NCBI GenBank assembly: GCA_963663165.1
Contig: OY760175.1
Coordinates: forward strand, 3,168,001 to 3,232,000
Reading direction: 5' to 3'
Source: an uncultured Desulfospira sp.
GTDB taxonomy: Bacteria > Desulfobacterota > Desulfobacteria > Desulfobacterales > Desulfobacteraceae
Length of the DNA stretch: 64,000 bases
Position numbers and translations under genes: made by a program. The notes below the pieces were generated by a model. The model was not told the origin of the DNA. It did no database searches and saw only the letters and a program-made list of their open reading frames with translations. Positions within the stretch are counted from its first letter, which is position 1; each line of letters starts with the position of its first letter. This document shows, in pieces, positions 8,684 to 30,330 of this stretch.

Positions 8684-8790
8684 CAGGGTCATCGCATGTA
8701 AAAAAAGCAATCTATTCCGGAATTAAAAATAAGGATAACCTAAATAAAATGTAATGGGGGCCGGAAACCGGAAGAAGGGAGACCGGATGC
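8684..8790 (+). mobile_element. Solitary ISAs1-type terminal repeat with subterminal sequence
   Basis: CAGGGTCATCGCATGTAAAAAAA...TCCGGAATTAAAAATAAGGATAA matches the inverted ends at 20860-20913 and 28178-28232. Confidence 0.7.
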
Positions 8791-23827: not shown

Positions 23828-24613
23828 ATGGAAAACAACGGCATACAAATCACCTGGCTGGGCACGGCAGCCTTCCGGATCAAAACCCGGAAAACCGATT
23901 TTTTAACCGATCCCTTTATCAGCCGGAATTCAATGGCATCCCCGGTTCAGGCGCTGGGCCCGGAACATTTCGGGCAGTTCCCCCTGGTCTTCCTGTCCCA
24001 CGGTCATTTTGACCATGCCAAAGACCTGCCGAAGATCCAGCCGGAACGCCTATGTTGTGCCCAATCCCTTAGCCCGGGCCTGATCAGAAAAGGGATCCCG
24101 GAAAAGCGGCTTATCCCCATACGCCATGACGGCCAGGGTTGTGAAATAAATTCATGTCAGGCAACCGCCTTTTTCAGCCGGCATATCCGGTTTGACCTTC
24201 CCCTGGTCAAAGACCGGGCCAGGGCAGGCCTTTTTGACCTTCTCCCCTGCATCCGGCTGCTTTGGGACTGGCCCTGCGGCCAGGTGTTAAGCTGGCAGTT
24301 TTTTTTAAATAAAAAGGTGATTCATTTTTTTGGAAGCGCCGGGTCCACCAAAGAAGAACTTCAAAAAATCGCTGCCAAAGGACCGGTCCATATCCTCATG
24401 CTGCCCCTTCAGGGACGTTCAACCATCTGTGATACCGCCCTTGATTATGTGAGGATTCTCAAACCCCAAACCGTCATTGCCCACCACCACGATGATTTCT
24501 ACCCCCCGGTATCCAGGAGTGAAGATATCACCCCCTTTACCCGGGGCATGGCCCGAAAATTCCCACAGATCAGACTGATCATCCCCCGGATCAACCGGCC
24601 CGTCCGGGTGTAA
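23828..24613 (+). CDS. MBL-fold metallo-hydrolase
   Basis: ITWLGTA, TDPFIS, SHGHFDH, AHHHDDF. Confidence 0.88.
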   Translation: MENNGIQITWLGTAAFRIKTRKTDFLTDPFISRNSMASPVQALGPEHFGQFPLVFLSHGHFDHAKDLPKIQPERLCCAQSLSPGLIRKGIPEKRLIPIRHDGQGCEINSCQATAFFSRHIRFDLPLVKDRARAGLFDLLPCIRLLWDWPCGQVLSWQFFLNKKVIHFFGSAGSTKEELQKIAAKGPVHILMLPLQGRSTICDTALDYVRILKPQTVIAHHHDDFYPPVSRSEDITPFTRGMARKFPQIRLIIPRINRPVRV

Positions 24614-24710
24614 TCAATAAAAACAATGCCGGGCCTTTTCTTGAACATCGGATAAAATGTTCCGAAAAAACCCGGCAGCCCGAAAGTTTAACATCGGGCT
24701 GGAAAAAAGG

Positions 24711-26498
24711 TTACGATAGTTTGAACCGGCCCATTAACGCCTTGAGCCGGGCCGAAAGGTCTGCCAGCCCATGGGCCGTATCCCTGACGCCGACGCTGCT
24801 GTCTGAGATTTCGCCTGACGCCAGGCTGACATTGGCTATATTTCCCGCCACTTCATCGGCCGCAACGGCACATTGTGCCACATTGTCGGTCACTTCTGAA
24901 ATCCCCAGAGAGGCCTGGGAAACATTTTGGGCAATTTCCCTGGTGGCTTCGGACTGCTGCTCCACAGCCTCCACAATAGCCCCGACGCTGTCGTTCACCG
25001 AATTAATCACCTGGATGATCTGTTCAATGCCTTGGGTGGTCTCTTTTGTTGAATCCTGCATCCGTTCGATCTTCATCCGGATCTCGGTGGTGGCATCGGC
25101 GGTCTGGGCGGCCAGGTTTTTGATTTCATTGGCCACCACGGCAAATCCTTTGCCGGCCTCCCCTGCCCTGGCCGCCTCAATGGTGGCATTTAAGGCCAGA
25201 AGGTTGGTCTGTTCCGAGATATCGGTGATGGTTTCGGTCACCTTGCCGATCTCAAGGGCGGCCCGACCCAGTTCCGTCACTTTCTCAGACGCCTGGCCGG
25301 CCCGGGACACGGCGGCCCGGGTCACATCCCGTGACTGCTCCGTATTGTTCACAATTTCCTGGATGGTTGCCGTCATCTCTTCGGCCGCCACGGAAACCGA
25401 AGCGACATTTCCGGCGGTCTCCTCTATGGAGGCCCTGACGCTGGCCATGCCGGCACTCATCTCTTCAGCAGCCGCCGCAACCGATACGGCCAGTTCAGAG
25501 GCATCCGAAGACTTGGCCGACATGGACCCGGCCGCCTGGTTCAGCTGATCAGAGGAGACCGACAAGGTGCCCACCCCCTGATTGAGGTCATCCATCATCT
25601 GCCGCAGATTGGCAATCATGGCATTCATGGCGCCGGCGAGTTTACCGGTCTCATCATCACAAATGACCGCCATATCCCGGCTCAGATCACCGCCGGACAT
25701 GCGATTGGCAAAATCAACCCCCTGTTTTAACCGGCCGGTGATGGACCGGGCCACCAGAAAGAATACCACCGAGGCCAGAATGATGCCGGCCAGCACCAGA
25801 ACAACGGCCTTGACAATTGAGGCACGCAGGGCGGCGTCCGCCTTATCCAGGGACTGGATCACTTCAAAGGCCCCATGGATCTCGCCTGCCTTCCAGTTCT
25901 CAAACGTTCCGCCCGTTGGATCTTTTCCATCATCGCGCCCCCACAGGGCTTTGGACTGGGCCGGATCACCATGGCAGATCAGGCAGGATTCAGTCAGCCG
26001 GATGGGAAGAAAATACCGCACGGCATTGATCTTGGGATCCACCACATAATACTCGCTGAGCCGCTCTTTTTTTATTGTTTCAAGGGCCGGCCCCTCAATC
26101 TTGTAGTCTTTACCGTAATCCGGGCCGTTTTCAGGACGCCGTGGGCTGAACTTGGGCACCCTGAAGGTGAAATCACCCTGTTCGGCTTTGCGCATGGCCG
26201 CATTCCATGCCGTCACCACAGGGATAGTGCCCAAAAGCTTGTCTGTCTCGTTATTCCGGGCATAGGCCTTGATGGCGTCAAGGGGGAACAGCCCCAGGGA
26301 CCATTTCTCATCCATCTCCTGCCGGGTGGATTCACAAATCAGACAGATAGACCGGGCCTTTTCCACATAGGCATCAATGGTTTGGGCCTTGTCTGACCGG
26401 ACATAAAAAAAGAGCAGGACACCCGTCAAAAGGACAGTGGTTCCGATGCCCACGGTTAAAAATTTGACAAAGATCGGCAGATCGAGAATTTTCTTCAT
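24711..26498 (-). CDS. Methyl-accepting chemotaxis protein with periplasmic c-heme (DUF3365-like) sensor
   Basis: TM1, SCLICHG (CxxCH), TM2, [31 protein letters not shown]. Confidence 0.93.
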
Positions 26499-26713
26499 TA
26501 TTCCTCCGAATGGAAAAAGATCTTTTCCCAGGCAGCCGGAAACTGGAATGATGCTGCTCTGGATAGAAATGTTTATGGCAATTCAATAAATTTAACAGAT
26601 TTATGGGGTCAGCTCAATAATGAAAACAAAGACGGGAAACGGGAGACCCCAGACCGGAAGATGGCAGACCCCTTTGTCTCAGGGTGATCGCATGGAACTT
26701 ACCTATAGTTTTT

Positions 26714-26860
26714 ATAAGAAACTGGAGACAAGAAACAAGAGACAAGAGGGCGAAGCACCTGCGGTGCCCAATTTATAGTCTACCGTTGCTGGTATCTTCA
26801 GTTTCATTATTCGTTGTGGGCGGTTCTTGGTTGGATAACCAAGACGGCCCGTGGCCGTTA
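26714..26860 (+). repeat. Two-hairpin structured repeat, copy 3
   Basis: First ~105 bp nearly identical to 9461-9561 (one extra heptamer); second hairpin nearly identical to 9623-9660. Confidence 0.92.
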
Positions 26861-27156
26861 ATCGAACGATGGGTGAACAGATGATAATATAATCCTTCCC
26901 CGCCATTTGAAAGGGGCCACCCCAGGATATTGTGTCGGGTCCAACCCCGTAACCTAAGAACTTATAGACATCTGTCGCCCACCGCCCAAGCAGAAAACCC
27001 CGAAAAAGACGGAATATCAAAGTGTTGAATATTAATAATGGTCCGGGGTTCTGAATCCATCATTGTAGGGGTTCTGTTTTTGACATAGTCTGCAGAGTGA
27101 AATTTTAAAATGCCATACAAACCAAACGAACGAAAGGCATTCTCAATGCGTGAAAG

Positions 27157-27504
27157 TTATTCTATAAGCTGCTCAACAGTTAATTCCATCGCATCTGCCA
27201 ATTTGATCAAGGAGCTTTTCCGGGGATTGGCATCCGGTCTCTCTATCCGGGCCAATGCCGGTTGCTTTATCCCTGCTTTAGCAGCAAGTTCCGCCTGGGT
27301 CAGACCTAAATATTCCCGCCAAGCTTTTACAAGGCTGTCGCCTCTGACATTTGCCTTTACCACTTCGTGGGGAAACCATACGTCAGATTCGTCCGGCTCA
27401 ATACCGTCAACCAGTACCTGGTATTCATCCCATGGAATGACGGCAAAAGCTGGTTTTCCACCTTGCTCAATAATTTGGACATTATTGGTAAGTACAGTTG
27501 TCAC
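27157..27504 (-). CDS. XRE/HigA-like HTH antitoxin
   Basis: VQIIEQGGKPAFAVIPWDEY N-terminus; VKAWREYLGLTQAELAAKAGIKQPALARIE HTH; overlaps the toxin gene. Confidence 0.9.
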   Translation of the reverse strand: MTTVLTNNVQIIEQGGKPAFAVIPWDEYQVLVDGIEPDESDVWFPHEVVKANVRGDSLVKAWREYLGLTQAELAAKAGIKQPALARIERPDANPRKSSLIKLADAMELTVEQLIE

Positions 27505-27745
27505 GTTTTTTTACCTCCTGAATGGCGATTATCTTAACCTGCTCTTCGTCGTCAAAAAGGACTCGATAGCGGCCTACCCTCATTCTGTAATCGTATTTGT
27601 GTTTTTTCAGCGCCTTAACATCAAGGCCTTTACAAGCGGGGAACTCTGCCAACTGGTCAACACTTTCAAAAATGGCTTCCTGGTACTCTTTGGGAACCTT
27701 TTTCATTTGTTTGCGGGCTTTGTTGCTCCATCGAATCGTTTTCAT
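27482..27745 (-). CDS. RelE/ParE (HigB-like) type II toxin
   Basis: IRWSNKARKQMKK, DVKALK, YRMRVGRYRVLF, IQEVKKRD. Confidence 0.92.
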   Translation of the reverse strand: MKTIRWSNKARKQMKKVPKEYQEAIFESVDQLAEFPACKGLDVKALKKHKYDYRMRVGRYRVLFDDEEQVKIIAIQEVKKRDNCTYQ

Positions 27746-27793
27746 AAAACCATAATAACAAAATATAACAATATGTCAATTTTGAAGTTATAT
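27746..27793 (-). promoter_or_regulatory. TA promoter (extended -10, probably leaderless) with operator IR
   Basis: Minus strand TTGACA-N16-(TGn)TATTAT-N6-ATG; ATATAAC/GTTATAT IR (27763-27769 and 27787-27793) brackets the -35. Confidence 0.6.
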
Positions 27794-28087
27794 AATATTA
27801 TATAGATAAAATCATATTAATATCGAATAAATTTGCCTGAGGTATTAAGAACTCCTAAGCTAATTTTGAGGCAGCGGTCACTACTTTTGTTATTGGTGGA
27901 CTGGATCAAAAATCTGGAAGATCAAATCAAGGTTCTGAGGTGAAGACTACCTCCAAAACAAAATCCGTTTTTTGTATGGAAGACCACCCCGGACTGTCCC
28001 TGTACTTCTGATCAAAAAAATTAGGATATTGAAATTGGGACCTGTCCTGGTTTCCCTGTGAGTAACGAAAATAATGTATATTGTTGA

Positions 28088-28166
28088 GACTTGGGATATG
28101 GGATATGGGACTTGGGGAGGCCGTGGATGCCGCAATCCCCAGGTCCCATATCCCAAGTCCCAAGTC
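28088..28166. repeat. Heptamer (GGGATAT/GGGACTT) tandem palindrome, copy 1
   Basis: GACTTGGGATATGGGATATGGGACTTGGG...CCCAGGTCCCATATCCCAAGTCCCAAGTC; near-identical at 30088-30168. Confidence 0.9.
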
Positions 28167-28409
28167 CAATTTTTTGGATTATCCTTATTTTTCATTCCGG
28201 GATGGACTGTTTTTTTACATGCGATGGCCCTGGCCCTTTGCCTGATAATCCTGGATATTTTTTTCAAAATGGCATATTAATCTTTGTTCCCCCCATGACG
28301 CGGTATTTAGGTCATCCCGCCATGAACCGGGATAATGAGTTGACCTATGGAACACAAAATAACAGTCCCGGCACTGCAATCCAACGGCACATCCACAGAA
28401 CGAAACTGA

Positions 28410-29651
28410 ATGAAGACAGAAAACCATCGATCACAGCCCGTAAAAAAGGGGCCCGGCTACAGGGAATTTGTTACCCTGATGGCGGTCATTATCTCCATCA
28501 CCGCCCTCTCCATTGATATGATGCTGCCGGCCCTTCCGGATATTGGACGGCAGCTTGGGGCAAGTCATCCCAACCATGCCCAGCTGGTGGTTTCCCTGGT
28601 GCTGTTCGGCTTTGGGGCCGGGCAGATTTTACTGGGCCCCCTGTCAGACTGCTTTGGCAGAAAGCCGATCATCCTTATGGGATTTTTGGTGTTTATTCTG
28701 GGATGCCTGATCTCAATTTTCTCCACCGGGTTTCACATGATGCTGGCGGGACGGTTTATCCAGGGGATTGGGATGGCCGGGCCTCGAACAGCCATTATTG
28801 CGCTTATCAGGGATTTGTACAGCGGACGGCCCATGGCCCGGATCGTGTCCGTGATCATGGCGGTATTCATTTTCATTCCCGCCATTGCACCTGCCTTGGG
28901 GCAAACCATTTTGCTGGTCGCGGGCTGGCGCAGCATTTTCGGTTTTTTAATGTTCCAGGGGGTCATCACGCTGACATGGTTCTGCCTTCGCCAGCCCGAG
29001 ACCCTGCCCAAAGAGAACCGTCTGCCCTTTTCTTTGAAGCGGATTCTAAAGGGGGGAACAGACGTGGTTCAAAACCGGGTCGCCATAGGGTATACCCTGG
29101 CCTCCGGGTTTATGCTGGGTGCCTTTGTGGGCTACCTGAACTGCGCCCAGCAGATTTTTCAGGATACATACGGTCTTGGCCGGGAATTTCCAATCTATAT
29201 GGCGTTTCTCGCACTGTCTGTGGGCAGTGCCTCCTTTGTCAATTCCCGCATTGTCATGCGCCTGGGCATGAGGGCATTGTCCTGGTGGTCTGTGGTTGCA
29301 TTTATCGTTGTGACAAGTATTTACCTTTTTATCACCCTCATGCTGCACGGCCATTCACCCCTCTGGTTGACCATGGTCTGTTTTTCCGTATCATTTTTCT
29401 GTCTGGGAATCGTTTTCGGCAATCAGAATGCCATTGCCATGGAACCGCTGGCCCATATTGCAGGGGTTGGATCTGCCGTGATTGGAAGTCTTGCCACCCT
29501 GCTCTCCTCACTTTTGGGCATGATTGTGGGCCAGTTCTTCAACGGCACCACCGTACCGCTGACTGTGGGATTTGTCATTCTCGGGGCATTCACAGCAGGG
29601 GCCATGTACTGGGCCAATGGCCCGTCCAAAAGGCCCAATACCCGGGGATAA
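28410..29651 (+). CDS. Bcr/CflA family multidrug MFS transporter
   Basis: ALSIDMMLPALP, GPLSDCFGRKP, RDLYSGRPMAR, GWRSIF, PETL. Confidence 0.93.
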   Translation: MKTENHRSQPVKKGPGYREFVTLMAVIISITALSIDMMLPALPDIGRQLGASHPNHAQLVVSLVLFGFGAGQILLGPLSDCFGRKPIILMGFLVFILGCLISIFSTGFHMMLAGRFIQGIGMAGPRTAIIALIRDLYSGRPMARIVSVIMAVFIFIPAIAPALGQTILLVAGWRSIFGFLMFQGVITLTWFCLRQPETLPKENRLPFSLKRILKGGTDVVQNRVAIGYTLASGFMLGAFVGYLNCAQQIFQDTYGLGREFPIYMAFLALSVGSASFVNSRIVMRLGMRALSWWSVVAFIVVTSIYLFITLMLHGHSPLWLTMVCFSVSFFCLGIVFGNQNAIAMEPLAHIAGVGSAVIGSLATLLSSLLGMIVGQFFNGTTVPLTVGFVILGAFTAGAMYWANGPSKRPNTRG

Positions 29652-29805: not shown

Positions 29806-30330
29806 CAGGGCAATCGCATGTAAAAAAATTATCCTCGATGATTTTTATTTACATATGCATTCAAGGTCCGCCCCTCTGTGGTGTTTGGCGTAAGCCAAAC
29901 CTCTGTGCCTCTCTGTGGTTTAAAACAAGAAATCCCGAAGGGATTGAATAGTTCTTCTTCAACCTCCCGGTTTGTAAAATTGTGGGCTTCGCCCACCTTT
30001 TTCATTTAACCACAGAGGACCACAGCGCGTCAAATCCGCAACCCCAATATGTGTTCCTTGCTGGTAAATTTAATATGTATAAAATGGGGACTTGGGATAT
30101 GGGATATGGGACTTGGGTAGGCCGTGGATACTGCAATCCCCAAGTCCCATATCCCAAGTCCCAAGTCCATTGTTTTGGAGAGTAACTGTATTATTTCTCC
30201 CAGGATAATCTTAATAAAATTTTAAACTTTTGGAGTTGAGTAGCACAGAGAACCACAGAGTTTCAGCGCTGTGCACTGAAATTGCATTCGGTAGTCTTAA
30301 ACAGTGGGAAAGTTACATGCGATTGCCCTG
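29806..30330. mobile_element. ISAs1-type MITE copy 2 with a nested ~213-bp insert
   Basis: Perfect TIRs CAGGGCAATCGCATGTAA/TTACATGCGATTGCCCTG; perfect 9-bp duplication AGGCCGTCA (29797-29805 and 30331-30339); colinear with 12451-12752 except ~30028-30240. Confidence 0.9.

Follow-up and report, generated by a model that had tools for sequence, protein, structure and literature searches.

A toxin-antitoxin pair nested between ISAs1-type ends and recombination-like sites in a Desulfospira genome

We analysed a 1553-bp element that carries a toxin-antitoxin gene pair in the genome of an uncultured Desulfospira sp. The element lies in the window, the 64,000-nucleotide stretch analysed here (G000:C1:3168001-3232000), which is part of a genome assembled as one contig of 6.74 Mb (the source genome, G000; 50% GC, 96.7% complete). 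Outer ends of the type found in ISAs1 insertion sequences enclose two repeated sites, L and R, which face each other, have a core in common and flank the gene pair. With about even confidence, we interpret this arrangement as a two-layer element: a non-autonomous ISAs1 frame that serves as a docking site, cargo loaded at L and R, a toxin-antitoxin pair that is incidental, and a copy that has aged. The layout of outer end, L, cargo, R and outer end recurs over 16.4 kb in the source genome and over 3.1, 10.2 and 18 kb in genus g3. Coordinates are collected in Table 1.

As described in the initial annotation, which was made from the window alone, a CTT-type (left-type) end at 26680 (+) faces an A-type (right-type) end at 28232 (-), and the flanks (26669..26679 and 28233..28243) are identical at nine of 11 positions. 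Among 4353 unrelated end pairs of the source genome, one attains 9/11, and ten have two or fewer mismatches in any register of 9-11 bp. The duplication of the local family is usually 10 bp long (39 close pairs, with perfect matches at 10 bp in nine, at 9 bp in three and at 11 bp in one). The flanks of the window element agree at only 5/10 positions in the 10-bp register, which is a caveat on a duplication of family length, and the duplication is either aged or one base off register. Four of the 967 strong facing pairs that lie 0.6-60 kb apart in the source genome, the window element included, have a duplication, compared with none in five shifted controls. When the end score is lowered to 8 or 5, pairs with a duplication are at chance level (19 versus 6-22 and 212 versus 173-205). 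A pattern search finds 105-133 ISAs1-type ends in this genome and a profile search 116, of which 46 have no partner and the other 70 form 35 short pairs spanning 180-525 bp. These unpaired ends, together with the unusual register, would be expected if the two ends of the window element came from separate insertions and faced each other by chance. We consider this very improbable, given the rarity of such flanks among unrelated pairs, the empty shifted controls and the fact that the two halves sum to one element (see below). Two further right-type ends without a partner are found at window positions 8684 and 20913, and a miniature copy of 525 bp, flanked by a perfect 9-bp duplication (window 29806-30330), is not present at the syntenic site of the nearest relative, G001.

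The terminal motif of the window element is present in 40 of 150 genomes of the family. In one relative (G056), an element of 1458 bp has this motif at both ends and is flanked by a 10-bp duplication; it encodes a 374-amino-acid protein that matches the ISAs1 transposase model NF033564 with an E value of 3.6e-132, and its left end is of the CTT type. Judged by their sequence match to this intact element, the ends in the window are of ISAs1 type, as initially annotated. The likeness extends to 18-bp terminal repeats and left and right end types, and most local copies also have the 10-bp duplication, whereas the window element has no transposase gene and an unrelated interior, the G056 element having no DNA match in the source genome. 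No transposase was found among the open reading frames inside 26680-28232, and no cognate ISAs1 transposase was found in the 96.7% complete source genome (best tblastn E value 1.6; no matches to NF033564). Matches to the ISAs1 transposase in G001 and G034 are partial or split. A 517-amino-acid transposase, present in ten copies in the source genome and retrieved in a PF13808 search, was considered as the cognate enzyme and rejected, its ends being related but different and its duplication 9 bp long.

A -35-like promoter box is situated 19-20 bp outside 24/66 left-type and 7/67 right-type ends of the source genome, compared with a background of 0.8%. For the 2777-bp element that encodes the 517-amino-acid transposase (G000:C1:237302-240080), nine of the ten copies lie 18-19 bp from a -35 box. 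Such a landing rule accounts for one target being used repeatedly, and under it frames at an orthologous site may be inherited or separate arrivals.

Excision of 26711-26859 and 26889-28062 from the window element leaves 230 nucleotides, 199 of which are identical to an ordinary miniature copy, and this argues that the two ends belong together. The right end (28179..28232) agrees with 12 of 13 miniature copies at 42-48 of 52 positions. Since left-end sequence is split by a 150-bp repeat and resumes after it, the repeat was inserted once the frame existed; the alternative offered in the initial annotation, a miniature element with later nested insertions, is correct for this repeat. The two-hairpin repeat and the heptamer palindrome had both been recognized inside the element (the source genome holds 26 full repeats and 45 heptamer hairpins), and what had been overlooked is that the former splits the left end and that sites L and R surround the gene pair. 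Comparison of the repeat with the sequences flanking the four IS110 genes showed no match. The central slot of local miniature copies holds at least three types of hairpin.

L and R each comprise a near-palindromic core with a 9-nucleotide centre, which differs between the two, and a second box 46-48 bp inward. The L model matches 17 sites in the source genome and 65 of 100 family genomes; the R model matches 24 sites (none on the reversed genome) and 66 of 100, and the matched genomes belong to the same nine genera. L/R islands, 1-27 kb long overall, occur in about 65 of 100 family genomes, and those of 1-25 kb contain toxin-antitoxin, type I restriction, BREX, Thoeris-like TIR, GmrSD and AbiC genes, and an AbiE pair lies just within a lone L site. 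At all three orthologous L sites compared, the source genome and G001 match as far as the L core and differ from within it onward, and the cargo differs at both L sites that were read in both genomes (e.g., 1.2 kb of toxin-antitoxin genes versus 22 kb with a BrxL gene). L-site cargo of G001 includes an OmpA-domain gene after a 664-amino-acid membrane-like gene (L212:9104-13416), which we take to be reminiscent of Zorya. R also occurs in direct repeat between single toxin-antitoxin or other modules (e.g., G000:C1:2337500-2339800 and 4444300-4446800), in the manner of a cassette array without hairpin sites. A box at window 26925-26934, presumably similar to the NrdR motif, recurs in leaders, in right-hand trailers (L199:4310-4340) and before unoccupied cores (L344-L350).

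The junction pattern predicted for an unoccupied site gives 14 matches in nine of 161 genomes, and five in the reversed control. Eleven of the 14 (in seven genomes) have no inner arm, two are normal L sites and one is chance-like; none has a clear ISAs1 end pair around it.

L and R are probably sites of a tyrosine recombinase, the candidate enzyme being a PF00589 protein. Several other identities were rejected. The cores of 20 R sites do not behave as attC-like hairpins (the mean folding z lies between +0.2 and +0.5 for either strand, with RNA and DNA energies). The element contains no integron integrase, and the score of a nearby tyrosine recombinase with TIGR02249, 34 bits, is below the cut-off of 265. 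Ends of RAYT/REP elements or TIRtrons were also considered, and of 11 Y1 loci examined (out of 14), one has a single partial L and none a pair. A loose two-box regular expression for L and R was dropped, as it gave 29 matches versus 46 on the reversed genome.

Both layers occur together with other cargo. In the source genome, worn ISAs1-type ends with a 9/10 duplication lie outside R and L of a 16,431-bp defence island (G000:C1:4001973-4018403), which carries toxin-antitoxin, type I restriction and Thoeris-like TIR genes. The site is empty in G001, with a single target copy; the element passes only at a lowered end score and rests on this empty site. An 18,020-bp element in G117 has a 9/10 duplication and an empty site in G081. 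Its cargo is a formate-dehydrogenase-like operon and a tyrosyl-tRNA synthetase (both within L250:6065-14436) and an IS110 gene, without an ISAs1 transposase. Elements of 10,240 bp in G087 (8/10 duplication) and 3127 bp in G034 (6/10), both with L and R, occupy one common site. Across 17 genomes, this site is empty in at least two (G117 and G126), has ISAs1-type ends in at least seven and is rearranged or unresolved in the other eight. Further alleles with ISAs1-type ends are seen in G102 (292 bp), G106 (about 280 bp) and G129 (1855 bp), and G093 and G135 have a left end and the leader, i.e., the sequence between left end and L. Paired ends around other cargo, for which the initial annotation had suggested a search, are thus found at these loci, and its proposal of a transposase-free, gene-carrying element with ISAs1 ends holds to this extent. 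The empty sites of these sister elements do not separate loaded from unloaded arrival.

In the window element, G034, G087 and G117, the left-type end lies beside L and the right-type end beside R. Among the L sites of relatives, 7/64 are accompanied by an inward-facing terminal repeat no more than 400 bp to their outside, compared with 0/64 in the opposite orientation and 0/63 further out; omitting one site chosen with knowledge of its repeat leaves 6/63 (Fisher p 0.001). The corresponding count for R sites of relatives is 1/53, and in the source genome 3/17 L and 2/19 R sites have an inward end versus 1.7% at random. The loci tested are best matches plus hand-picked pairs, and kin genomes are not independent. 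One homologue of the leader, at 1290 kb in the source genome, matches at 69% over 83 bp; another, in G034, matches at 63% over 97 bp. A terminal repeat lies ahead of both. No L/R partner of the right-end homologues in G065 and G123 was found in the stretches covered.

DNA between such ends can relocate. A 20,061-bp block of the source genome with cytochrome c, iron-sulfur and aminotransferase genes (G000:C1:2737416-2757476) has a miniature copy on either side, and the outer flanks of these copies form a perfect 10-bp duplication. In G001, its site is empty and the block is found elsewhere, with homology stopping at the inner edges of the miniature copies. Composite transposition fits this history; recombination between copies would look alike.

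The anatomy described so far is shared by a second explanation, which we regard as a serious possibility with less than even support: an ordinary 200-230 bp ISAs1 miniature element was later struck in place by an L/R island and the 150-bp repeat. The leader would then be part of the island, the island would prefer the AT-rich central slot, and the ends would never move cargo. The two explanations part over two questions: whether the frame includes the leader and L, and whether it moves when loaded. Several findings weigh against the docking frame or favour insertion in place. The element without its inserts matches a normal copy, the insert occupies the slot that holds variable hairpins elsewhere, and the right part of the window element, by its similarity to an ordinary 220-bp copy (28063-28235, 93% over 175 bp), is an ordinary local miniature element. 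Miniature copies of the source genome often gather insertions, with a group II intron in one (G000:C1:2421228-2423515, within a 302-bp copy with a perfect 10-bp duplication) and a RIT element in two (G000:C1:2833165-2837510 and 4197466-4201811, inserted at the same position of different copies). No terminal repeat lies near 57/64 L and 52/53 R sites of relatives, so L/R islands mostly exist without a frame. The ends that precede the leader in the source genome belong to different subfamilies. We saw no loaded frame at two sites and found no unloaded frame with both ends. No -35 box lies to the left of the window element, and to its right there is only a 4/6 match, at position 20. The link to the candidate recombinase is loose, with a site within 1.5 kb of its gene at 4/17 loci outside the source genome versus 1.7% of random windows, and integrase remnants are present at 1/20 L/R loci. 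Most genomes with L and R have no candidate recombinase at an E value of 1e-60, and aligned integrase flanks show no common L or R at a fixed place. Insertion in place is opposed by the matching of left-type end with L and right-type end with R at four loci, by the terminal repeat before the leader in two genera and by the relocation of the 20-kb block.

The two 4346-bp miniature copies with RIT insertions were also considered as one loaded element at two sites and rejected; they differ at 17/228 positions in their miniature parts and at 5/4118 in their RIT parts, and since they diverge more in the former, the RIT insertions are independent. At 2337.5 and 6731.8 kb of the source genome, RIT elements also border R extensions on their inner side. 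At G000:C1:2833155 and 2833165, miniature elements lie back to back with one 9-bp target copy in common, the same site having been struck twice.

The gene pair consists of an 87-amino-acid and a 115-amino-acid open reading frame with Pfam matches above cut-off (ParE_toxin and HTH_3, respectively); the toxin gene lies upstream of the antitoxin gene and overlaps it. With a toxin domain next to an antitoxin domain in a single operon, the pair is a putative type II system (RelE/ParE + XRE), as predicted from its sequence; no NCBIfam family scores above cut-off. The sigma-70 promoter match (11/12 positions, 27779-27752) is conserved in G001 together with the genes. A distance of 6 bp separates the end of the -10 box from the toxin start codon (window 27745-27752), which suggests a leaderless transcript. 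The initial annotation of an intact RelE/XRE pair with its promoter therefore stands, and only the AT-richness is milder than stated (45.8% GC versus 50% in the genome).

It had further been proposed that the element is kept by addiction. A mobile cassette dedicated to the pair, transposed as a 1553-bp unit and maintained in this way, would account for the paired ends, the duplication and the intact genes with promoter, and contigs from two studies contain the element in unaltered form. We nevertheless consider such a cassette improbable. The pair is present in a single copy in the source genome, and terminal repeats are absent from all 13 homologous loci, with the limit that several of these contigs are 1.4-4.4 kb long. 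An R-like match is present at three of the 13 (one with an E value of 1e-6, two weak). G001 has the pair at 86% identity at a different locus without ends or L/R, and the sister frames hold other cargo. Toxin-antitoxin genes at this locus without the ends in relatives, named in the initial annotation as a finding that would speak against it, are thus partly what we observe. As the pair lacks ends at 13/13 homologous loci, addiction does not define the element, and the pair would be the incidental cargo of this copy.

An empty site of the window element was another check proposed initially. The syntenic site of G001 lacks 24614-28239, including the MCP gene (window 24614-26679), and there is no clean empty site for the 1553-bp unit because this nearest relative also lacks the MCP gene. 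Contigs of four runs contain only the full element or a form that skips 24516-28443, with no intermediate allele.

In the docking-frame interpretation, the outer layer would comprise the left end, leader, L, R and right end, and an ISAs1 transposase acting in trans would once have inserted this frame, as happened with its relatives, giving a duplication of roughly 10 bp; the usual landing point would be 19-20 bp before the -35 box of a promoter. The inner layer would consist of L and R, double-stranded sites that resemble recombination sites; cargo would enter and be replaced between them, the enzyme probably being a tyrosine recombinase provided in trans. In this copy, the cargo would be the toxin-antitoxin pair, which may help the element to persist. 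We infer the mobilisation in trans, the recombinase and any role of addiction from the arrangement of the parts. With its worn duplication, split left end and no cognate transposase found, the window copy has aged and is probably no longer mobile. More tentatively, and on the unlikely side, such elements could form a mobile gene-docking platform of Desulfobacteraceae, in which a frame placed in trans upstream of promoters swaps defence, toxin-antitoxin and metabolic cargo at recombination sites and is movable while loaded. If the docking-frame interpretation holds, defence and toxin-antitoxin islands would reach, and turn over at, fixed promoter-adjacent spots of sulfate-reducer genomes without mobility genes. 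The ISAs1-ended frame may be a movable gene docking site rather than a dedicated toxin carrier. Three points can be tested: ISAs1 ends around 1-20 kb of cargo, promoter-directed insertion in the ISAs1 lineage, and a widespread recombination-like site pair.

Table 1. Features of the 1553-bp element and its flanks (window positions)
Feature	Position	Strand	Basis
Left target-duplication copy (11-bp register)	26669..26679	+	9/11 to 28233-28243
Left end, first part; terminal inverted repeat 26680-26697 (IRL type)	26680..26710	+	16/18 to left end of intact G056 ISAs1 element
150-bp two-hairpin repeat, later insertion	26711..26860	+	26 full copies in source genome; left-end sequence continues beyond
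Left end, second part	26860..26888	+	Joined to 26680-26710: 50/60 to first 60 nt of another miniature element
Leader, left end to site L	26888..27026	+	Homologous leaders at 1290 kb of source genome and in G034
Site L	27027..27095	+	Near-palindromic core, 9-nt centre, second box ~47 bp inside
Antitoxin-like XRE/HTH_3 protein, 115 aa	27157..27504	-	Pfam PF01381, E 8.8e-12
RelE/ParE-superfamily toxin, 87 aa	27482..27745	-	Pfam PF05016, E 2.9e-8
Promoter-like site of toxin-antitoxin pair	27752..27779	-	11/12 consensus positions
Inner extension of site R	27843..27937	-	Common to about ten other R copies in source genome
Site R	27938..28008	-	Two-box geometry of L, faces L, other 9-nt centre
Spacer	28009..28062	.	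No clear homologue in source genome
Heptamer hairpin, usual central slot of local miniature elements	28063..28178	+	Similarity to ordinary copy
Right end; terminal inverted repeat 28215-28232 (IRR type)	28179..28232	-	15/18 to right end, 17/18 to left end of G056 element
Right target-duplication copy	28233..28243	+	Match to left copy; G001 colinear with window from 28240 onward

Parts of this arrangement are already known in other families, namely cargo enclosed by non-autonomous ends, composites of miniature elements, and insertion targeted to promoters. In the literature searched, we found no description of the three testable points, nor of these parts combined on ISAs1 ends with internal exchange sites, which is weak evidence of absence as most subscription journals and ISfinder lay outside the search. 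The role of the proposed platform would be comparable to that of Tn402 plus an integron, the parts being unrelated.

An ISAs1 element within a mosaic element is cited in PMC3281130. Promoter targeting is shared with the p-MULT elements TnGBS, ISLre2 and ISKra4, which differ in having Mutator-like transposases and a spacing of 15-17 bp, and ISAs1 does not occur in the paper that describes them (PMC3942029). The 20-kb block of the source genome resembles the TIME-COMP structures of the TIME/TIME-COMP/TIME-RES group of Pseudomonas (PMC4133298). In contrast, TIME elements are members of the Tn3 family whose repeats measure 38 bp and whose duplications measure 5-6 bp; trapping demonstrated their mobility, whereas we infer it, and no exchangeable cargo sites are described for them in the passages seen (PMC4133298). 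The MITE-flanked class 1 integrons of Acinetobacter likewise place non-autonomous ends around site-specific gene capture with variable cargo (PMC10969869). The window element differs in having no integron integrase, an R site that does not fold like attC and one split element instead of two whole MITEs; ISAs1 is not mentioned for these integrons in the part of the source available (PMC10969869).

The closest likeness in kind is to mobile insertion cassettes, such as MIC231 of Bacillus cereus and the Tn3-type cassettes of Xanthomonas, in which passengers, some of them toxin or antitoxin genes, lie between transposon ends in units of 3-19 kb (PMC4337579). Both have passenger genes between ends, target duplications and no transposase of their own, and the difference is that the window element is ISAs1-ended, has its cargo between, and changing at, a second conserved pair of internal sites, and belongs to a family with promoter-tied landing (PMC4337579). 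Passenger genes do lie between the ends of the window element, and a cognate transposase is missing from the source genome as searched. By this comparison, the element would function as mobile insertion cassettes do while filling a role akin to that of an integron. It is no integron, and its placement in the cassette class is provisional.
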